Shown piece by piece: positions 19,836 through 55,192 of a stretch of DNA of 64,000 nt (position 1 is its first letter; the number at the start of each line of letters is the position of its first letter). Position numbers and translations under genes: made by a program. The notes beneath the pieces were generated by a model. The model was given only the letters and a program-made list of their open reading frames with translations. It was not told the DNA's origin and did not search any database. The DNA lies in IMG/VR virus record IMGVR_UViG_3300029922_000017, positions 1-64,000 of that record, one strand, 5' to 3'. Origin of the DNA: a virus.

Positions 19836-20699
19836 ATAAACAATCAATTTGTAAACATTGCCATAAAGAATTTATTATTGGAAAAAATTGTAAGGGAATA
19901 TATTGTAGTTCCACATGTCATCGATTATCTCGTATTAACACGAATATATTTAATTGTAAATGGTGCGGTGTTGGTGTATCTCGTATGCCATCAGAATTAA
20001 GAAATGTAAACCACGTATTTTGCAATAGTAAATGTGCGGCACACTATAATAATAGTATAAGAAAATGGATATAGACGCACTATAAATTCCTGTAAAAAAA
20101 CTAGCCAGACATTAAAAAATAGAAACCTTAAATTATTTAGTATTGAGATTGAATTGGGGATTAGAAATCCGGTTACACGAGAAAAAATATATAAGAATAA
20201 ATGTATTATGTGCGATGTAAATTTTGAGCGAAATTATATTGCTAAGACGTGTTCTAGAACTTGCTATCTGAAATTGCGTCCGTCAATTGGACGATTGGGA
20301 GGCTTAAAAGCAGCAACGATGCCTTTTCAAATTCGAAGTAGAAGCAAAAATGAAAGATTATTATTTGAATTAATATACCGCAAGTTTCCGGATGCAGTCC
20401 ACAATCGCCGAATGTTTAATGGATATGACGCAGATATAGTTATACCATCGTTGAAATTAGCAATTCACTGGAATGGCGCATGGCATTATACAAACGTATT
20501 AAAATCTGAATATGGACTGAAATTATTACATAAGACCCAATCTAAAAACAAACTACAATTATCAGAGATTGAAAATTGTGGATTTAAAAATTATATTATT
20601 AAAGATATGGGCGGATATAATCCTAAATTTGTAAATCCCGAATTTGAAAAACTACTGGTCCTAATGGAGAATTTCGAAATCTCAACCCCTCCCTTATAA
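19832..20699 (+). pseudogene. Frameshifted Zn-finger + PD-(D/E)XK endonuclease
   Basis: Cys-rich N-terminal ORF stops at 20074 while another frame runs open into DADIVIP..KLAIHWNG.WH. Confidence 0.6.
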
Positions 20700-20730
20700 A
20701 GAGAACGCTCTGCCTTTGAGCTACATTAGG
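20656..20730 (-). tRNA. tRNA-Ile(TAT)
   Basis: Cloverleaf, loop TTTATAA, ACCA end. Confidence 0.8.
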
Positions 20731-21981: not shown

Positions 21982-22070
21982 TGGAGCAAAGAATTGGAGT
22001 TGAACCAATGATGATGTTTTCACATTAGAGTTTTGCAGACTCTTGCTTTCGACCACTCAGCCATCTCTGC
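21982..22070 (-). tRNA. tRNA-Cys(GCA) with long variable arm
   Basis: Loop CTGCAAA, T73-CCA, variable arm ATGT-GAAA-ACAT. Confidence 0.85.
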
Positions 22071-36240: not shown

Positions 36241-36328
36241 TGGTCAGGCGGATGGGCGTCGAACCCACATGAAGCTTTCGCTACCAGATTCACAATCTGG
36301 GACATTAACCAATTATGCTACCAGCCTG
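36241..36328 (-). tRNA. tRNA-His(GTG) with variable arm and A73
   Basis: Loop TTGTGAA, variable arm AGC-GAAA-GCT, ends GACCA. Confidence 0.8.
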
Positions 36329-36339
36329 TTTATTTACTA

Positions 36340-36415
36340 TGGTAGTGCTGGCAGGAATCGAACCTAGCGTAGCTCATTTGAAGGACGAGCGAATCTACCA
36401 ATATTCTACAGCACC
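36340..36415 (-). tRNA. tRNA with TTC anticodon (Glu), atypical
   Basis: Loop CCTTCAA (C33), bulged T-stem, CCA. Confidence 0.7.
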
Positions 36416-36426
36416 ATTAAAAATAT

Positions 36427-36520
36427 TCAATGTTATAGTTGGATTCGAACCAACGAAGATATTTCTACCTTATCCCATACACGATGGGACAACTTCAACC
36501 ACTCGTTCATATACCATTGA
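36427..36520 (-). tRNA. Class II tRNA-like RNA without CCA
   Basis: D-arm, TCCCA/TGGGA arm with loop TCGTGTA, variable arm, GTTGG-TTCGAAT-CCAAC. Confidence 0.5.
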
Positions 36521-36560
36521 TTTTTACAAATTTACTAGTTAACATTTCACTTTGTAAATT

Positions 36561-36653
36561 TGGCACCTCGTATTAGAATTGAACTAATATTAACGGAATG
36601 ATTACCGCATCTAATTTTGGAGATTAGTGCCTTACCGGTCGAGCCAACGAGGT
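36561..36653 (-). tRNA. tRNA-Trp(CCA) with long variable arm
   Basis: Loop CTCCAAA, GCCA end, 22-nt variable region. Confidence 0.85.
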
Positions 36654-36856: not shown

Positions 36857-37537
36857 TTATAAATATTTTTTCAATTCTTCAATGCATTTGATTACATTTG
36901 CTTTTACTTCTTTTGCCGTGAATCTTACAATCGTCCAGCCTTGTGATTTACTAAATATATCACGACGAGCATCAATTTTTTTAATCTTTTCCGATGTATG
37001 AGTTCCACCATCAACTTCAACGTCTATTTTTTTATCTACAAACGCAAAATCGTATTCATAGATTCCATTTCTGAATGCATACGTCCATCCAGTTATATTA
37101 GATGCTATCAAAGCATTCTCAAAGACTTGTTCTGGATATGATTTTCTAGATGAATGATTTATCAAATATGGAACTTTATCAGGATGTTCTGTTAAATATT
37201 TAATTCTAGCTTCGGAAATTTTTTGCTTAGTTTCTTCGGAATGTTTTTTTAAACCTCGTCCATTTTTTCGGGATAATTTATTCGCTGCTGATGTATTTCG
37301 AGTTGATTTAAATCGTCCAGACCTTATTGCGTTAAATATTACTGATTGTCCTGCTCCAAAATACGACGATATTTCTCGCCAAGTATGCCCCGCATCATAG
37401 TAAGATTGGATTTCATTCCAGTCATATTTTGATTTGTTGTTATGTCTGTAATTCTGAGGGCGTCGGGGGAATTAATCCCAATTTAAAAGCTGAATATTGA
37501 GTTTTAAGATTGAATATTTTCAACCATCTCCGGATAT
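36857..37537 (-). pseudogene. Disrupted DUF559/Vsr-like endonuclease
   Basis: YEYDFAF...IDVEVDG..H...D..RD; frame open ~100 codons upstream without ATG, apparent frameshift near 37465, 5' end abuts tRNA-Lys. Confidence 0.65.
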
Positions 37538-37540
37538 TGG

Positions 37541-37624
37541 TGGTGCTGCCGATGGGACTCGAACCCATGTTGTTTAAATACCGAGTTAAAAGCTCGGTCC
37601 AGTCGCCGCTATGGAAACGACAGC
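37541..37624 (-). tRNA. tRNA-Lys(TTT) with enlarged variable region
   Basis: Loop CTTTTAA, 12-nt variable region, CCA. Confidence 0.85.
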
Positions 37625-37941
37625 AAAAATTTATGTATCTCTCTACATCTGTCAAGCCTACGTCAAAGCGGGCTTTCGCTCTACAAATATGTTTTTATTG
37701 AAGATTTTAATCGGGAACCCTAAACAATTTAACCGGATTAAAATTGGAATGACATCATTCCCTGACTGCTATCGTCAAATCTCGGTCTGGGCTATTGACC
37801 CGCACCGCACGGAATATGGTGTTTCTTGGCACACCTACTACTCTAAGCCACTAAAATTCTAATCTTTTTATAGTGTTTCGGTATCTTTTTTACCGGACTC
37901 ACTCTTAACTTTCACTATCTTACCACATTATATTTAATTGT

Positions 37942-37974
37942 CAACAACAAACAACCGACCTTTTTTGGTCGGTT
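37942..37974 (-). terminator. Attenuator terminator hairpin
   Basis: AACCGACC-AAAAAA-GGTCGGTT followed by GTTTGTTGTT. Confidence 0.7.
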
Positions 37975-38004
37975 TATAAGTTTTTTATTTCTATTTCTTC
38001 TAAC

Positions 38005-38145
38005 TTATATTCCGACCTCGTGCTTTTTATCTTCCGCTCCTGCTAACCCGACAACTGTATTTCTATTATATGAATGGGAGCGGAGTGGTGCTACCCACTT
38101 AATTGTGGGGCAACTAAACTTCGGTTGTTTCATATTACTATTCAT
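38005..38145 (-). CDS. Putative attenuator leader peptide, 46 aa (not in ORF track)
   Basis: MNSNMKQPKFSCPTIKWVAPLRSHSYNRNTVVGLAGAEDKKHEVGI*; all 20 amino acids; 3' end complementary to the terminator 5' arm. Confidence 0.7.
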   Translation of the reverse strand: MNSNMKQPKFSCPTIKWVAPLRSHSYNRNTVVGLAGAEDKKHEVGI

Positions 38146-38223
38146 ACTAAATTATATATATCTTCGACTTTTACTTTTCTTTAAAATTTCTTAATAAATC
38201 TTTCATTAATTTATTATGTGAAC

Positions 38224-38817
38224 ATTCTACACTATTTTCGGAGAATGTCAAGTTCTTTTTAAAATATCGGTTTTACCTAGTTACATCCCCGAAAGTTTTT
38301 TAACGCACTAGGACTGCGGTAATTCATTATTACTTGCCGTTCGTCAGAATTACAATTGAGAACGTGCCAGTCAATTTACATGGAAAACTGACAAACCAAA
38401 TTTAACTATATCGACATTCTACACTATTTTCTAAGAATGTCAAGTTCTTTTTTACTTTCGTCTGGAAATTCGATTTTAGCAAACATCGGCTTATATTCAA
38501 ATTCCCACATATACCAATCTATCATCTGCTTCTTCCAGAAATTTCTTAACATTCTCAACTTCACTATTACTTTCAATGTCATTCATATTACACTATTTTT
38601 TCTAAATGTCAACTACTTTTTTAAAAGTGATGTTAATTATAACCTTTGACCGAGGGTTGTGTTGTCGACTGATAAAATATGCTACTATCCAAATTCACAT
38701 ATTTCCTGCGGCTCCATAAATTACTTTGATAGTTCATTTGGACATTCCCTATCGTTTCACGCCGACACCAACTCTAATTAACAAAATGGATTATAGACTA
38801 TTTTTCGGATTTGTCAA
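38224..38817 (-). promoter_or_regulatory. Four tandem sigma70-like promoters
   Basis: TTGACA...TAGAAT/TAGAAT/TAATAT/TATAAT with -35 boxes near 38251, 38443, 38612 and 38817. Confidence 0.7.
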
Positions 38818-39062
38818 GAGATTTCAAATTATTTTTTAATTTTTCTTCGAAATACTTATCCTACTCATCTTCTCCTAACATATCAAACGAGTCAAACATA
38901 ACGTCCATGACACTTCTCCGTCTGCCATTCTCTTTAAATTTTTCCCAAGTTTCATCATTCATAAAATATTATCTCCCTCGTAATTTCTTACATTCTAAAT
39001 TGGCACTATTACATTCGCCGCCAAATCTTAAACATGCGATTGAAAACATAAAAAAGAGCAAT

Positions 39063-39488: not shown

Positions 39489-39952
39489 ACTTTACTTATA
39501 TCTCCAATATCCAATAATCTCGGAACATCTATCCAATTATCAGTTACTATAGTATTGCTCAATTTTCCTTTGTAGGTATCTAAATCTTCAGCCGTAGGGG
39601 AAAATAAAATTTTAACTATATTTTCAGGAAGATGGAACATAACCTCCGGTCTATCATCAATAAAATGAGTTAGTTCCAGTGCTTTTGCAAATATAGATTT
39701 GTCTTTCCGCTCAAAACAAAAGTATAAATTTTCAAATGGAACATTAGTATTTTTTAAAACTTCATATTTTAATAACCATTCCTCGACGTGCCACTTCTGA
39801 ACTGAATTACATTTTGATATAAAATATATATTATCAAATCGGGAATGTAAATTTTTGATTACATCAAATGAATTTGGGGCTGGTTCATCTTTATTACCGG
39901 TTGCCCGATTTCCTTTAATTGTCCATCCAATATCAATTCCTAAGTTTCTCAT
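39485..39952 (-). CDS. HAD-like protein
   Basis: GIDIGWTI, FIS, K..., THFIDDR. Confidence 0.7.
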   Translation of the reverse strand: MRNLGIDIGWTIKGNRATGNKDEPAPNSFDVIKNLHSRFDNIYFISKCNSVQKWHVEEWLLKYEVLKNTNVPFENLYFCFERKDKSIFAKALELTHFIDDRPEVMFHLPENIVKILFSPTAEDLDTYKGKLSNTIVTDNWIDVPRLLDIGDISKV

Positions 39953-40278
39953 ACTTCAATATATTTAATCGGTATTCCAAGTTTAATTGCCAGTGCTATT
40001 TCTCCCGCCACGCCTTTTGATTTATCCCAACCTTCCATTTTAAGAACCCACAATTCATCACATTTCGGCAAGATAAGTTCTAAATAATTCTTCCAATAAT
40101 TCCAATCGGTTGGCAATTCATGAGCAACTGCCATTGGATGTGTGGCGGCAATTGGAGAATAAATGTAATGTCCATCCTTCATCAAATTTGCGGTCACTTC
40201 CATTACTTGTTCAAATCGTTGTCTTTGAACATCTATATCAGAATGTGAATAGGGCGATGCTAAATAGATTAATTTCAT
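39949..40278 (-). CDS. Nucleoside deoxyribosyltransferase-like (DUF1937/DUF4406) protein
   Basis: IYLASPYS...CDELWVL...GWDKSKGV..E. Confidence 0.75.
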   Translation of the reverse strand: MKLIYLASPYSHSDIDVQRQRFEQVMEVTANLMKDGHYIYSPIAATHPMAVAHELPTDWNYWKNYLELILPKCDELWVLKMEGWDKSKGVAGEIALAIKLGIPIKYIEV

Positions 40279-40320
40279 TCTAAGGAGTATAACAGATATT
40301 TAGAATAAGTCAAGAAATTA

Positions 40321-40394
40321 TGGAGCGAGTGAAGGGAATCGGACCCTCGTATAAAGTTTGGAAAACTTCCATTCTACCATTGAATTACACTCGC
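40321..40394 (-). tRNA. tRNA-Gly(TCC)
   Basis: Loop TTTCCAA, T73-CCA. Confidence 0.88.
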
Positions 40395-40462
40395 TTTAAA
40401 TAGAGACTTCACAAGTCATGGTCTCTTTTCGAGATTGGGTAACTTGCCTCTAATCTCTGAAA

Positions 40463-40538
40463 TGGTAGCGATAATAGGAGTCGAACCTATATTGACAAAG
40501 CTTATGAGACTTCCGCATTACCATTATGCTATACCGCC
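40463..40538 (-). tRNA. tRNA(CAT), Met or Ile2
   Basis: Loop CTCATAA, CCA. Confidence 0.85.
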
Positions 40539-41476
40539 ATTAACTATAAATAGTGTTTACTTTTTCTTTTTTAGCGTTTTTCTTGCTTTTCTAAGCAATT
40601 CTGCTTTCTTTTTTTTAGAATATCCTGATACTCGTGTTCTTACAATGTCTGTTTCTTTAGACAGTCCATTTATGAAATCGATATTATCCCGAATTTGTTT
40701 AGTTGTTAATTTTCTCTCAACCAAATTTTCAGGTGGCTCTATTAACTGACGAGCATTAATTTCTCGAATTAATCTTTCCTTTTGAGCATCCGTCGCTCTT
40801 TGCATAGATGGAAAATATTTCGATTTCATGTTGATATAATATCAGATTTTAAATAAAAGTCAAGCAATATTATCAATTGCATCTTTTACCTTTTCAATGA
40901 TGGCATCATGCGTATCTTCAATAACATCCTGAAAATCATTGCTTAATTGACCAATTAAATCATTTACAATCTTCCATGTAAATTCTTGCCACTTTTGGCG
41001 GTCTTCATATGAAAGAGAATTTACTTCTGGGTAATGGGAATAATGTTCTTTCCAATTAATGTCAAAGGTTTTGCCGATGTTTGATAATTTATCCAGTGTT
41101 TCGTCGTATTTTTTATTCATGTTGATTTTTCCGAGACTCTTCTTCTAGGTATTTATTATAATCTTTTTTCCAAATATCTTCACCGAAAGTTTCTTCTATA
41201 AATTGACGTGGAGTTTTTTTAACTTTTAATGCATGTTTAACCAAGCATTCTATGTCATATGGGTCTCCCTCTTCAAATGCATCAAATCCAAGTAATTTTT
41301 TAGAAATTTTATTGCACTTGGATTTAAATAGTTGCTCCGTCATATTTAATGTTGAGGAAATGTTATAACTTGCCGATTGTCCATATAAATATTATCCATA
41401 TCAAAATTATTATCGCCAGTTTTACATCCGGCTTCGGACAATAATATTAAAATTAATATGAAAAATAATAAAAAGT

Positions 41477-42361
41477 TCATAGGGGTGATGCTTTTCCGAT
41501 TTTAACATAAAACCGGTTCACCAATTCAATAATTTCATCGTTCAATCTCAATTTTGCTTTCTTAATTAATTTCGTCGGAATCGTTTCCGTGCCATAAAAT
41601 GCTTCGGCAATGGAACCGGCAATTGCTGCATTGGTATCAGTATCTCCGCCCAAATAAATTGCATTTCTAATTGCCGACTCATAATCCGTAGACTCCATAA
41701 AACATACCAATGCTTGAGGAGCAGTCACGTTACATCGAATAGAGGTCTTTGGAATTGCTCTTGCGTCTTCCACTGACATATCTAACATATGTCCAAATTG
41801 TTCTTCGACATATGCTTTAATTTCCTGCTTAGTCTTACCATGACGAGCCATCCAAATTGCACTAGTAATTGATTTTACTCCACGCTCAGATTCAGGAGAA
41901 TTATGAGTCTGTTGAATGCTTGAGATTGCCATTTTATACATGTTATCCATATTAGATTCGGGAAACCTAGAATAATACATAGCAATTGGGCTACACCGCA
42001 TCATACATCCATTAGCATAACTATTATTAACAGTATAATATTCGCTATCCTTGGTTTTAACCCATTCTTTAAATGCTCCACCATATCCTCTGTCTGGATA
42101 TTTTACTGCCCACATTTTATAAGATGCAGCGAAGTTAGGAAGTGCCAGTATATTGTCTGAATTTGGCATTATTATTGATAATATCGTTTCGGCAATTGCA
42201 CATGTCAATACAGTATCATCCGTAAAACGACTGTTAGAATAGAACATGTTAAAGTTCTTTGTGCCAACCGGACGTTTCGGGTATTGTGGGCTACTTTCAT
42301 ATACCGACCCTGCGATGTCGCCAATAATTGCTCCTATCATAGTTTTATTTCTTTCTTCCAA
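41477..42361 (-). CDS. ADP-ribosylglycohydrolase (DraG/ARH family)
   Basis: GAIIGDIAGS.YE, FTDDT, NG..MR.SP and GGDTDT motifs. Confidence 0.92.
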   Translation of the reverse strand: MEERNKTMIGAIIGDIAGSVYESSPQYPKRPVGTKNFNMFYSNSRFTDDTVLTCAIAETILSIIMPNSDNILALPNFAASYKMWAVKYPDRGYGGAFKEWVKTKDSEYYTVNNSYANGCMMRCSPIAMYYSRFPESNMDNMYKMAISSIQQTHNSPESERGVKSITSAIWMARHGKTKQEIKAYVEEQFGHMLDMSVEDARAIPKTSIRCNVTAPQALVCFMESTDYESAIRNAIYLGGDTDTNAAIAGSIAEAFYGTETIPTKLIKKAKLRLNDEIIELVNRFYVKIGKASPL

Positions 42362-42548
42362 AAATATTTATATTTCATTCCTTCAATATCCGGTTTACAA
42401 TTAATACAATAATAATCTCCAGCTTTAATCGATTCCCATTGATATTCATTTAAAAATGAATTTTCTGGCTGTATCACTTCTTGTAATTCTAAATTGCAAC
42501 ATGGACATCTCATATTATTTTAATAATGTTATTGGTGCATATTCCGAA

Positions 42549-43652
42549 TCAATTAAATATTGGGGTTGGGTCTATTAAATCATTCCAATCAGATTTATTA
42601 TCGCCAACTTCTTCAAATGCACGATATATTCCATGTTTATATAATTCAATATGAAGCATGGAAGTGTTATGACCTTGGATGTCAGGTCTTTCTTTTCCTT
42701 CTTTAAGGACTCTCTTTACATTTCCTATAAAATCCCCAGATTTTAATTTCTTTCCAATTTTCATTCCAAAATCAATATCAATTTCACCATAACAAACTAC
42801 TCCGGATGCACCTTCTACTAAAACACATTTAGTATCATTCCACCACGGAGTTTGTTGAGAAGAACCAGTGAACTCTTCAATTCCTACTACGGTTCCAGAT
42901 TCAACTGCATATACGGATGCCCCATCATTGGTATATAAATCAACACCGGTATGAGTATGATGTTTTCTTTTTGTTAAAAATGCGCCGGGATGTCCTTTAA
43001 TTGGAATTCCAGAACAATTAGTGTTTTTCGAATCATCAAATCTCCAATGTAATGGGAAATGCCATTTCAATGAATTATTTACTTCTTTAACAATATCCGA
43101 AATATCAGCCAATGCTCCCATACCTTCCGTTTTGCAAGCCAACATTTTTGATTGTGGCATTACAATCTTATATCCCCAGTTGGTTAATTTATCCAAGTGT
43201 TCTTTAGTAACTGGATGTTCCCACATCGCTGTATTCGCAGCGCCGGCAATAATTAGGGGTCTATTCATATCCCACGCACGAACAACCGAGGTTAATAAGT
43301 TATCACATAATCCATTGGCAATTTTTCCCATTGTATTTAATGAACATGGGGCAATTACAAGTGCCGATGCTTGATTTCTTATATTAATATGAAGAACTCC
43401 ATCTCCAGTTTTCCACTTGCTAGTGATACGTCCTGTCGTTGGGTCTTGCCATTGCCATTCGTCGTCATCAACATAATAAATTCCACCTAGTTTTTCAACT
43501 AACAGTGCCAGTTCCAAGCAATCTATAAAATGTCTGGCTGAGTTAGTAATTATAGTATCGACTATAAAATGTTCACTCAATTGAGTGACCAGCTTCTTCC
43601 ATAATACAGTGGCAACGCTACCAGTCAATCCTAACAGTATTCGACGTTTCAT
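42549..43652 (-). CDS. HAL3/CoaC-like flavoprotein (PPC decarboxylase) fused to M23 peptidase
   Basis: GLTGSVA, VLH, APCSLNTMGKIANGLCDNLL, NTAMW, LAC; then HTGVD and MLHIEL. Confidence 0.85.
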   Translation of the reverse strand: MKRRILLGLTGSVATVLWKKLVTQLSEHFIVDTIITNSARHFIDCLELALLVEKLGGIYYVDDDEWQWQDPTTGRITSKWKTGDGVLHINIRNQASALVIAPCSLNTMGKIANGLCDNLLTSVVRAWDMNRPLIIAGAANTAMWEHPVTKEHLDKLTNWGYKIVMPQSKMLACKTEGMGALADISDIVKEVNNSLKWHFPLHWRFDDSKNTNCSGIPIKGHPGAFLTKRKHHTHTGVDLYTNDGASVYAVESGTVVGIEEFTGSSQQTPWWNDTKCVLVEGASGVVCYGEIDIDFGMKIGKKLKSGDFIGNVKRVLKEGKERPDIQGHNTSMLHIELYKHGIYRAFEEVGDNKSDWNDLIDPTPIFN

Positions 43653-54787: not shown

Positions 54788-55192
54788 TGGTGGAAATGCT
54801 CGGAATTGAACCGAGGTCTTGAATACTAATTCATAACGATACTACATGGTTATTTCATTTTAATTTAATCTTGATTTTTTTAATGAACAATACATTTCAA
54901 GCATTGATAATTTATTGAGTTATCAACGATCATATAATTTTAACTATATGCGGTTTACTCACTATTAGAGCAATAAGAATTTTAATGAGTATCCAGTCTT
55001 ATTTCGGCAACTAGACCAATTCTAATTCGGGCGTATTGATTTCTTCATTCAGAAAGAATGAAAAATCCAACGCTGCAATCTGCGCTAGGCGGTTTGCATT
55101 TGGTTTTTAATTATATTTTTAACGAGGCCATATAATAAACCCTCCCCATGCATCGTTATGTCAAAGAATTCGGTCGATACCATTACATTCCC
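54788..55192 (-). ncRNA. ssrA: tmRNA
   Basis: GGGAATG/CATTTCC-ACCA with G3:U70, GGTATCGAC D-like loop, T-arm CTCGG-TTCAATT-CCGAG, resume GCA and tag ORF at 55011-55097. Confidence 0.9.

Follow-up and report, generated by a model that had tools for sequence, protein, structure and literature searches.

A short leader ORF that ends inside a predicted antiterminator: a candidate ribosome-mediated attenuator upstream of phage tRNA genes

On the minus strand of a 64,000-nucleotide stretch of viral DNA (positions 1 to 64,000 of record IMGVR_UViG_3300029922_000017, hereafter the window), a 46-codon leader ORF runs into an RNA switch: a predicted antiterminator hairpin, in whose 5' arm the ORF ends, competes with an intrinsic terminator. 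The antiterminator is non-random and the RNA switch exceeds chance. Sequence comparisons support an ORF that looks translated and is conserved as a short ORF. We hold it an even call whether the leader works as a ribosome-mediated transcription attenuator with an all-amino-acid ORF, in the manner of the whiB7 uORF; judging from this arrangement, transcription probably continues past the terminator when ribosomes are slow. The element spans about 270 nt and is portable. Its source is an uncultured giant phage.

Why phages hold large sets of tRNA genes, and how the expression of these sets is timed, is an open question. Current ideas are the matching of codon usage and the replacement of tRNAs destroyed by host defences.

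Results

Two alternative folds at the end of the leader

The leader was compared at the DNA level between the window and three related sequences, X15, X18 and L017, while its wider family was compared as peptides. The X15 contig covers 37864-38260, and 16 of its 18 differences are listed. L017 is a true relative from a metagenome scan and ends at codon 20; three further matches of that scan (L018-L020) were false positives within a GC-rich transposase-like gene. The features of the element are collected in Table 1.

Table 1. Positions of the elements of the leader and its promoters in the window
Feature	Position	Strand	Description
Promoter P4	38224-38251	-	TTGACA-16-TAGAAT; sigma70-type; -35 hexamer and a -10 element kept in L017
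AU-rich 5' leader	38146-38217	-	Between the presumed start and the ATG
Leader ORF	38005-38145	-	46 codons and UAA; member of an 11-peptide family
Hairpin 1	38090-38114	-	Codons 11-19; -11.3 kcal/mol
Hairpin 2	38033-38084	-	UCCGCUCC/GGAGCGGA around a 36-nt interior; codons 21-38; -15.0 kcal/mol; unchanged in X15
Antiterminator hairpin (B:C)	37967-38017	-	5' arm 38017-38002, 3' arm 37982-37967; predicted, -16.1 kcal/mol
Predicted intrinsic terminator	37945-37974	-	AACCGACC/GGUCGGUU stem, A6 loop, tail GUUUGUUG; -13.4 kcal/mol
Promoter P5	37917-37944	-	TTGACA-16-TAAGAT, TG before the -10; starts 1 nt past the T tract; unchanged in X15

The initial annotation had proposed that GGUCGG-AA-UAUAAGUU, at the end of the ORF, pairs with AACUUAUA-AA-CCGACC, and that a terminator stem AACCGACC-A6-GGUCGGUU (37974-37953) followed by GUUUGUUGUU stands in competition with it. 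Both hairpins were confirmed. The 5' arm of the antiterminator spans codons 43-46, the UAA stop (38007-38005) and the next 3 nt. The terminator has the make-up of an intrinsic one, i.e. an 8-bp stem with 5 G-C pairs, the A6 loop and a T-rich tail; by strict criteria the only other minus-strand terminator of the window is at 10129-10105, beyond the last tRNA gene. The upper AU helix of the antiterminator (38009-38002 with 37982-37975) is compatible with the terminator while the lower GGUCGG/CCGACC helix is incompatible with it, and over the region 38019-37945 the two alternative states are near-isoenergetic (-16.1 and -16.8 kcal/mol).

Adding the terminator 5' arm to its 75 upstream nt brings a gain of -11.9 kcal/mol. 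This gain ranks first among the 16 terminator-like hairpins of the record (the next is -7.7 kcal/mol), and it is equalled by 0 of 3000 shuffles and by 2 of 3000 random genomic 75-mers. As in attenuators, an alternative hairpin sequesters a strand of the terminator, and the overlap between ORF and switching strand follows from geometry alone, the stop codon being inside the antiterminator 5' arm. With the stop so placed, the layout is that of a ribosome-mediated attenuator, in which termination would be favoured by a ribosome at the stop and read-through by a delayed or absent one.

The internal hairpin that had been suggested within the ORF was also found, UCCGCUCC (38084-38077) pairing with GGAGCGGA (38040-38033), and on the predicted fold it could act as a pause hairpin. 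Hairpins 1 and 2 may instead sense a ligand, a protein or a tRNA in an attenuator independent of translation (riboswitch or protein-binding type), the ORF then being incidental. The significance of the switch would suit such an attenuator as well, and so would the interior of hairpin 2, whose 36 nt are unchanged in X15 and correspond to a stretch of peptide that the family largely keeps. However, the ORF features would then be a coincidence, among them a stop codon that 10 of the 11 family members place precisely within the switching strand, and at E up to 10 over 37300-38900 there was no Rfam riboswitch or T-box match, the matches being sub-threshold sRNA and snoRNA chance matches only. We regard this reading as unlikely.

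Composition and codon usage of the leader ORF

The ORF is present on the minus strand and translates as first described, with 20 amino-acid types and 34 distinct codons; Trp, Cys and Asp are each represented by a single codon. A count of 46-codon windows does not place this composition beyond chance: the presence of all 20 amino acids and the codon diversity are, taken alone, explained by chance. The record has 42553 windows of 46 codons without a stop, of which 1.1% contain all 20 amino acids, 1.1% at least 34 codons and 0.10% both; when the bases of the ORF are shuffled with the frame kept open, the corresponding values are 2.0%, 11% and 0.7%. Of the 184 ATG ORFs in the record that are 40-55 codons long, 2 contain every amino acid, which is the chance prediction. 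The GC-rich synonymous codons had been thought unexpected. They are accounted for by the stems, which are GC-rich. At least 34 codons occur in 11% of same-composition shuffles; the GC content of the ORF is 41% vs 34% for the record. Neither amino-acid runs nor an enrichment in cognate codons of the trp/his type were found, all 20 amino acids being present.

A chance ORF with chance complementarity, in an inter-promoter spacer whose sole function is a terminator insulating P5, would agree with the 2 of 184 count and with a finding that was chosen post hoc. Conservation in 11 diverged relatives, an antiterminator P below 0.001 and a compensatory change speak against it, and we judge it very improbable.

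The codon-usage score of the ORF, 0.212 bit per codon, resembles that of in-frame phage genes (0.249 +/- 0.099 for in-frame windows of long genes, -0.008 +/- 0.101 for open off-frame windows). Not one of 98 off-frame windows scores as high, nor does any of 105 open windows that overlie tRNA genes, and P = 0.046 relative to shuffles.

A family of leader peptides

The leader peptide is a member of a family whose 11 peptides measure 44-57 aa and share 43-84% identity with that of the window. The start position is kept in all 11 and the stop lies one codon past the conserved Gly of the antiterminator arm in 10 of them; changes in length are in-frame. These relatives were found through called ORFs, so that the conservation of the ORF is ascertained by the search route and is not an independent test.

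All 20 amino acids are present in 8 of the 11 members and 19 in the remaining three, for an expectation of about 1-2% in random peptides of the same composition and length. In some members Trp, Cys, Ile, Gln and Arg are gone from their usual column and present elsewhere. Completeness was assessed by resampling the non-consensus residues of each member, which makes the test conditional on the divergence of each: 5.5 or 5.2 all-20 members are expected vs 8 observed (P = 0.027 or 0.0056). Given that the query had been picked for its 20 amino acids, P becomes about 0.1 (hand calculation). The resampling was substituted for a column shuffle (8 observed vs 4.5 expected, P = 0.0046), which we set aside because unequal divergence puts the losses in few members and inflates significance. 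Selection for amino-acid completeness thus appears weak and weakly significant across the family sequences (P about 0.006-0.1), and completeness may be a selected property.

The conserved peptide motifs FSCP, PLRS, GAE and EVG fall on RNA stems. Moreover, 5 of the 8 substitutions seen in the ORF are non-synonymous (among the X15 differences listed and L017); counted separately, they are 4/4 in the L017 stretch and 4/7 in X15 among the differences listed. It follows that conservation does not extend to the peptide itself, and RNA constraints alone account for much of what the family members have in common.

These data bear on whether the locus is an ordinary 46-aa protein gene, driven by a promoter of its own and closed by a gene-end terminator, whose peptide is the product that matters. 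Such a gene would account for the gene-like codon usage, for the family of 11 called proteins, for a -10-like motif that precedes the ATG by 5-7 nt, an arrangement shared with the many leaderless genes of this phage, and for a stop-terminator distance taken as usual (31 nt from stop to stem, vs 8-26 nt at ordinary gene ends of the record), which also counts against an attenuator; a true small conserved protein, with the motif DWYMWEFEYKPMFA, is encoded two units upstream of the leader. It would fit poorly with the high share of non-synonymous changes, with radical substitutions (W -> G, K -> W, A -> M, H -> V), with conserved residues lying on RNA stems and with a leader peptide that has no Pfam match, and it leaves the competitor of the terminator unexplained. 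We consider this explanation quite improbable.

Natural variants and the limits of the module

Between 38145 and 37945, 11 positions are changed in X15 (among the differences listed) and L017, 8 of them unpaired and 3 in stems. All three stem changes keep pairing. In hairpin 1 of L017 a G-U pair becomes G-C at 38093, and a loop change at 38099 is tolerated; in the antiterminator of X15 the pair U38009-A37975 becomes C-G, a compensatory change. The variant leader ORF remains open with 20 amino-acid types, and the variant energies are -17.5 kcal/mol for the antiterminator and -14.1 kcal/mol for the terminator. G37952 is replaced by U in X15 and X18, giving an uninterrupted run of 6 U after GGUCGG, i.e. 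an improved T tract. The GGUCGG/CCGACC/GGUCGG strands show no variation in the DNA compared. The compensatory pair of X15 lies in the AU helix only and is no proof of the switch, since that helix fits both states.

The flanks of the element are mosaic. Upstream of P4, X15 carries a different sequence, and downstream it departs from the window at about 37864; in X18 the terminator is joined to a different sequence and the block from 37944 to about 37861 is absent. The promoter-ORF-terminator block therefore behaves like a stand-alone gene, a module complete in itself.

The leader could accordingly be a stand-alone small structured RNA gene, one of a battery of promoter-driven RNA units, with an RNA that acts in trans and an ORF that is incidental or secondary. 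Besides the self-contained block with its own promoter and terminator, the whole leader transcript folds at z = -5.15, the changes seen all spare the stems, and the conserved peptide motifs map on them. The neighbouring units are structured or non-coding: relative to the window, L017/X18 show compensatory changes at three adjacent pairs of the unit at 38396-38262 (GUA/UAC -> AAU/AUU), and the unit at 38783-38632 is about 93% conserved with 1-nt indels. Trans-acting RNAs derived from attenuators are known, e.g. rnTrpL. A small RNA gene would nevertheless not be expected to keep start, frame and stop position (10/11) across 11 peptides down to 43% identity, nor a gene-like codon usage, and a competitor of the terminator arm would have no obvious use in a simple one. 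Target complementarity in the 138.9-kb record consists of AT-rich 11-15-mers alone, none above chance. No Rfam family matched the leader or the units next to it, and at the gathering score only tRNA and tmRNA families appear in the window.

The MFE of the window sequence also suggested a closed, cloverleaf-like stable RNA, in which 38130-38121 pairs with 37958-37949. Changes at 38124, 38121 and 37952 in X15, X18 and L017 leave this closing helix 8 of 10 pairs and an internal mismatch, and it is missing from the variant's MFE. We rejected it as a conserved feature because it is weakened in the variants and because it needs the T tract while this is still in the hybrid at the termination decision. 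The weakening of this 5'-3' helix by three variant changes also counts against the small RNA gene, which on balance we find doubtful.

Promoters and genes around the leader

Four near-consensus sigma70-type promoters in tandem are directed toward the leader, P4 being the last (the others at 38817-38790, 38612-38585 and 38443-38416), and transcription from P4 would start near 38217. The distal part of the 5' leader (38182-38217) is variable, with indels in relatives, and L017 and X15 show no change in the 36 nt adjoining the ATG (38146-38181). These include a -10-like TATATA or TATAAT at a distance of 7 or 5 nt from the ATG, as is usual for the leaderless genes of this phage. Without a -35 element these hexamers resemble a leaderless or late promoter, and a promoter at this place was not retained.

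The initial annotation had the leader gate an array of about 35 co-oriented tRNA genes. Co-oriented tRNA genes do follow, with a count corrected to 30 by ARAGORN (10802-37624). Two more lie upstream of the element (40321-40538), so it is not at the head of the array as had been claimed; most of the phage's tRNA genes are downstream of the switch. Immediately 3' of the terminator come a structured RNA (37910-37625) and then the tRNA genes Lys, Trp, His, Glu, His and onward. The promoter that had been noted just after the hairpin, TTGACA-16-TAAGAT (P5), is indeed present, and a further promoter lies downstream at 37655-37628. Because the near-consensus, sigma70-type P5 begins 1 nt after the T tract, the downstream genes do not depend on read-through in the window and X15. 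The co-oriented RNA and tRNA genes downstream may belong to the unit that the switch would regulate; P5 stands between them and the terminator in the window and X15, and is missing from X18. Weaker terminator-like hairpins detected downstream by looser scans (37761-37746 and 36053-36030) could limit the reach of read-through.

In a cultured-phage database neither the DNA of 37600-38600 nor an 886-aa protein had a match, and a 141-aa HAD-like neighbour had matches of 28-33% identity only. Scans of viral contigs and genome contigs gave no relative of the element. A 102-kb relative (L003/G001), found via a 155-aa neighbour (52% identity), is non-syntenic here; its 3-tRNA cluster is preceded by a promoter only, without a leader.

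Discussion

The attenuator proposed in the initial annotation keeps a conserved ORF and a stop inside the 5' arm that competes with the terminator; it is weakened by a completeness that is only weakly significant and by the promoter P5 that follows. We infer translation, the relative timing of ribosome and polymerase, and the targets fed by read-through. RNA polymerase coming from the tandem promoters (P4, possibly P1-P3) would transcribe the 46-codon ORF. A closely following ribosome that reaches the UAA would cover the 5' arm of the antiterminator with its footprint; with 38017-38002 masked, CCGACC (37972-37967) and the downstream GGUCGG would pair, and the terminator with its U tract would halt transcription. 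If the ribosome is absent, or late before about codon 39, the 38017-38002 arm would pair first with 37982-37967, the terminator arm would be sequestered and the polymerase would continue into the structured RNA and then the tRNA genes, from Lys onward. P5 and P6 would in this manner supply a basal output, which read-through from strong upstream promoters would supplement whenever decoding is slow.

If the attenuator is real, a cis-acting gauge of ribosome speed on 20 amino acids would be a direct regulatory link from decoding failure to phage tRNA supply. We advance more tentatively, as a possibility on the less probable side, that giant phages carry a dedicated decoding gauge: a leader ORF kept by selection with every amino acid, together with the terminator and antiterminator, such that any shortage or cleavage of tRNA (starvation, host anticodon nucleases) raises the transcription of their own tRNA region. 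In the literature searched we found no description, for tRNA genes or for phages, of a pan-tRNA sensor controlling tRNA supply. If the element is instead a stand-alone small RNA, the region would still be a battery of conserved, unclassified structured RNAs within a phage tRNA array.

The classical leader-peptide attenuators (trpL, hisL, pheL, thrL and the ilv leaders) repeat one or a few cognate codons in runs and possess a 1:2 anti-antiterminator, so that the lack of translation leads to termination. The leader described here resembles them by a leader ORF, an intrinsic terminator, an alternative hairpin that shares a strand with it, and a ribosome at the stop that would favour termination. 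It differs in having neither the cognate-codon runs nor the 1:2 hairpin: the leader revealed no region 1 that would pair with 38017-38002, and for this reason the lack of translation should here give read-through.

Antibiotic-sensing attenuators and uORFs, as portrayed in parts of the reports on vmlR of B. subtilis (PMC9226507) and the topAI uORF of E. coli (PMC12121999), are likewise general sensors of impaired translation that turn on a downstream gene by antitermination. They differ, on the same accounts, in that drug-stalled ribosomes act at particular sites, in some cases via Rho or translation attenuation, and in having no link to tRNA genes.

The long tRNA array of Anabaena PCC 7120 (trn operon) is induced under translational stress (PMC8421152), and an accessory tRNA array that is on when translation is impaired is also the logic proposed here. 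Its control is ascribed to promoter direct repeats and a repressor, and in the text available of PMC8421152 'attenuat' and 'leader' occur 0 times.

The whiB7 (wblC) leader of mycobacteria consists, according to sections of a preprint (Poulton et al. 2023, PMC10274678), of a translated uORF followed by antiterminator/terminator alternatives. Ribosome stalling in the uORF leads to read-through and loss of the start codon raises basal expression, the latter matching the read-through predicted here when translation is lacking. Of the 20 amino acids the M. smegmatis uORF contains 19, and which starvations it senses depends on its composition. As far as those sections go, the two systems differ in their host, a phage here vs a bacterium, and their sequences are unrelated; in what lies downstream, structured RNA and tRNA genes here vs a transcription factor gene; and in the promoter that follows the terminator here, unlike at whiB7. 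The whiB7 uORF is highly variable and Ala-enriched, whereas the present family keeps an even set (8/11 complete). If the attenuator reading is true, near-complete uORF sensing of the whiB7 type would be extended from bacterial stress regulons to viruses.

Folding of the terminator and antiterminator

The structures proposed in the initial annotation, i.e. the antiterminator, the terminator with its T-rich tail and an internal UCCGCUCC/GGAGCGGA hairpin, are present in the sequence and fold at -16.1, -13.4 and -15.0 kcal/mol respectively. P5, the promoter directly behind the T tract, was likewise confirmed. When the 5' arm of the terminator is joined to its 75 upstream nt the folding energy falls by 11.9 kcal/mol; the source of this gain is GGUCGG (38017-38012), which prolongs the AU helix beyond a 2x2 AA/AA loop. 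No other of the record's 16 strict terminator-like hairpins gains as much (next -7.7 and -4.6; most 0), and the value was matched by 0 of 3000 shuffles of these 75 nt and by 2 of 3000 random genomic 75-mers. The RNA switch between antiterminator and terminator is not due to chance. Two near-isoenergetic states are found for 38019-37945: the upper AU helix with the terminator (-16.8) and the full antiterminator (-16.1). Mutual exclusion with the terminator is confined to the GGUCGG/CCGACC part of the antiterminator.

Coordinates of the leader element and of the features around it
Feature	Position	Strand	Remark
Leader ORF	38145-38005	-	46 codons
Hairpin 1	38114-38090		within leader ORF
Hairpin 2	38084-38033		within leader ORF
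Antiterminator	38017-38002 with 37982-37967		
Terminator	37974-37953, tail to 37945		
Promoters aimed at leader ORF	38817-38790, 38612, 38443-38416, 38251-38224 (P4)	-	four, near-consensus
P5	37944-37917		unchanged in X15
Further promoter	37655-37628		
Second strict terminator	10129-10105	-	beyond last tRNA gene
Looser terminator-like site	36053-36030		comparably stable, tail poorer
Weak terminator-like site	37761-37746		185 nt downstream
tRNA genes downstream	37624 to 10802	-	30 (ARAGORN)
tRNA genes upstream	40321-40538	-	2 (ARAGORN)
Unusually long tRNAs	within 36241-36653, 21982-22070, 37541-37624	-	His 88 and 89 nt, Trp 93 nt, Cys 89 nt, Lys 84 nt (ARAGORN)
tRNA-Tyr	20656-20730		anticodon ATA (ARAGORN)
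tmRNA	54788-55192	-	RF00023, 82.8 bits, full length
DUF559 gene	36857-37165	-	Pfam E = 1.6e-11
Upstream neighbours	39949-43652	-	see text
Strong fold	37625-37910	-	behind P5
Conserved unit	38262-38396	-	~135 nt
Small protein	38424-38600	-	L017 773-982
Conserved block	38632-38783	-	~150 nt
Promoter 6-8 nt before ATG, examples	69689, 84983, 77501	+, -, +	whole record
Second gene-start class, examples	54746, 28081, 14557		

Natural variants of the element

Three sources allow a comparison at the DNA level: L017, a JGI contig that stops at codon 20 of the leader ORF; X15, a contig covering 37864-38260; and X18, contigs covering 37945-38001 and 38082-38401. Eleven positions of 38145-37945 are changed among these variants (those of X15 taken from 16 of its 18 differences). 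Eight of them are unpaired in the model, where 94 of 201 positions are paired, and the three stem changes all keep pairing. U38009-A37975 becomes C-G by a double compensatory change, and in hairpin 1 a G-U pair becomes G-C at 38093. The compensatory pair belongs to the AU helix, which is compatible with both the antiterminator and the terminator states; as all three variants seem to represent a single lineage, it counts as one event. The change of G37952 to U makes the tail after GGUCGG an unbroken run of 6 U. With 16 of its 18 differences, X15 folds at -17.5 (antiterminator) and -14.1 (terminator) with hairpin 2 unchanged, and its leader ORF stays open over 46 codons with 20 amino-acid types. 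The long-range helix closing the MFE of the window is not kept in the variants.

Probable translation of the leader ORF

The codon-usage log-odds of the leader ORF is 0.212 bit per codon, which places it at the 35th percentile of the in-frame windows of 46 codons taken from long genes (0.249 +/- 0.099). This score exceeds those of all 98 open off-frame windows (-0.008 +/- 0.101), of all 105 open windows over tRNA genes and of 95.4% of open shuffles.

A word-based protein search gave two called homologues, a complete HMMER scan of 1.84 billion representatives gave further ones, and profile word searches supplied the remainder. The set converged at 11 peptides, which are 44-57 aa long and 43-84% identical to that of the window; P0008 and P0010, being repeat proteins, were left out as spurious. 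The start is kept across the 11 peptides, and 10 of them end one codon past the Gly that the GGUCGG arm specifies; their whole-codon length differences are forced by the way relatives were found. The 36 nt before the ATG are unchanged in L017 and X15, while the distal leader is full of indels. Those 36 nt hold a -10-like motif at the spacing typical of the phage's leaderless genes. On these sequence features the leader ORF is probably read by ribosomes.

The peptide itself is another matter: five of the eight substitutions seen in the leader ORF are non-synonymous and those of the family are radical, which counts against a functional peptide. The conserved motifs (FSCP, PLRS, GAE, EVG) coincide exactly with the stem-forming codons of hairpins 1 and 2 and of the antiterminator arm. 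Such a pattern would be expected if the RNA and the act of translation matter, not the peptide. A non-coding RNA combined with ascertainment is also compatible with it.

Amino-acid diversity and completeness

The leader ORF does contain 20 amino acids and 34 codons, a diversity on which the initial annotation had laid weight. Of 42553 stop-free 46-codon windows in the record, every amino acid is present in 1.1%, at least 34 codons in 1.1% and both in 0.10%. Owing to its stems the leader ORF has a locally raised GC (41%), and open-frame shuffles of its own bases reach all 20 in 2.0%, at least 34 codons in 11% and both in 0.7% of cases. Of the record's 184 ATG ORFs with 40-55 codons, the leader ORF and one other, antisense to a long gene, contain every amino acid. 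Two is the number that chance predicts, so that the diversity alone is not special; as a statistic on its own it is a post-hoc pick.

Within the family, all 20 amino acids occur in 8 of 11 members (P0006 and P0013 are without Cys, P0012 without Ile), as against 0.8-2.2% of random peptides drawn from the pooled composition. In several members a rare residue is gone from its usual column yet found elsewhere: Trp at 17 and not 9 in the window's peptide; Cys at 19 and not 12 in P0007, where Gln and Arg have also moved; Ile shifted in P0006 and P0007. A column shuffle of completeness gives P = 0.0046, a value inflated by unequal divergence. When the non-consensus residues of each member are resampled, 5.5 complete members are expected vs 8 observed against a phage-proteome background (P = 0.027), and 5.2 vs 8 against the family's own non-consensus residues (P = 0.0056). 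Because the query was picked for completeness, the fair test is on the six other members that lost at least one consensus residue type: three are complete vs 1.3 expected (P ~0.1, calculated by hand from the per-member resampling probabilities). The result is suggestive of selection for completeness but does not establish it.

Genomic setting and proposed control of the tRNA region

The 138.9-kb record, whose first 64 kb form the window, is only ~39% complete by CheckV and therefore belongs to a giant phage; its GC is 34%. Peat metagenome runs hold the same DNA, lake-water and freshwater runs diverged copies. No Shine-Dalgarno-like motif precedes 100 of the 116 ATG ORFs of at least 120 aa. In dozens of genes over the whole record a TTGAC(A/T)-N16-18-TATA(A/C)T promoter lies 6-8 nt ahead of the ATG and, given this short distance, their mRNAs are probably leaderless. 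A second class of gene starts has TATATTTATA 3-6 nt upstream of the ATG, without a -35.

ARAGORN finds 32 tRNA genes on the minus strand, and Rfam 27 tRNAs plus one tmRNA. The count of about 35 co-oriented tRNA genes downstream of the leader has to be lowered accordingly (Table). Some ARAGORN tRNAs are unusually long for normally short-armed identities. The tRNA region also holds the small DUF559 / restriction-endonuclease-like gene, which may be a mobile element. The upstream neighbours encode DUF1937, two HAD-like small proteins, a flavoprotein-M23 peptidase fusion and an ADP-ribosylglycohydrolase (E = 1.5e-36).

By strict criteria the minus strand of the window has only this terminator and one other; a looser scan gave 15 sites, only one comparably stable. 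Most of the tRNA genes lie downstream of the terminator. With P5 and the further promoter giving a basal supply, read-through could only add to it.

The P5 block (37944 to ~37861) is an insertion/deletion polymorphism, present in the window and X15 and missing from X18, where the terminator tail is joined to the sequence that follows 37864 in X15. The promoter-ORF-terminator block remains intact, but its flanks vary: the X15 sequence upstream of P4 is a different one, and in L017 blocks are added or missing between the upstream units. Such modularity fits either a stand-alone gene or a portable regulatory cassette.

The region behind P5 has a strong fold (-73.5 kcal/mol, z = -3.3, 0 of 200 shuffles as good) without an Rfam match; X15 shares only its first ~46 nt. 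In the upstream region small units, driven by promoters, follow one another, and at least two are non-coding. The unit 38262-38396, behind promoter 38443-38416, is a structured RNA for which Rfam also gives no match. It is almost unchanged in L017 and X18 apart from GUA (38353-38351) to AAU and UAC (38321-38319) to AUU; these changes amount to three compensatory pairs, side by side, within the 7-bp helix GUAAUUC/GAAUUAC. The block behind the perfect-consensus promoter at 38817 is ~93% identical in L017, where three 1-nt indels mark it as non-coding, and is probably another small RNA. The small conserved protein has the C-terminal motif DWYMWEFEYKPMFA[KR]IEFP; in the window the part matching the L017 N-terminus (MNDIE...) is in a different frame from the C-terminal part; a frameshift, an alternative start or an error in the assembly may be the cause.

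Proposed mechanism and comparison with known systems

Our preferred reading, at about even chances, is that the element is an attenuator governed by the ribosome, like the whiB7 uORF. On reaching the UAA, a ribosome would cover 38017-38002 and the terminator would form; with the ribosome absent or delayed, the antiterminator would form and polymerase from the strong tandem promoters would enter the downstream RNA and tRNA region. The layout of the element agrees with this: the ribosome footprint reaches ~12-13 nt downstream of an A-site stop. A ribosome with the stop (38007) in the A site would cover the whole 5' arm, leaving 37982-37967 free, and on the same established footprint figures the sole Asp codon (38031-38029) would be the last stall position still leaving the 5' arm free. 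In trp and his leaders an upstream strand pairs with the antiterminator arm; in the phage leader no upstream strand pairing with the 5' arm was found, so its untranslated state should be read-through.

Read-through is also the outcome of loss-of-start mutations in whiB7 (PMC10274678). Sensing of many amino acids by near-complete uORFs has been shown experimentally for whiB7; the uORF of M. smegmatis is without only Cys, and after removal of its Trp or His codons the corresponding starvation is no longer sensed (PMC10274678). In Anabaena, accessory tRNA arrays are induced by translational stress, but control is described as acting via promoter repeats and a repressor, not attenuation (PMC8421152). 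Full-text searches turned up no description of a leader-peptide attenuator ahead of phage tRNA genes, nor of phage leaders that contain all 20 amino acids.
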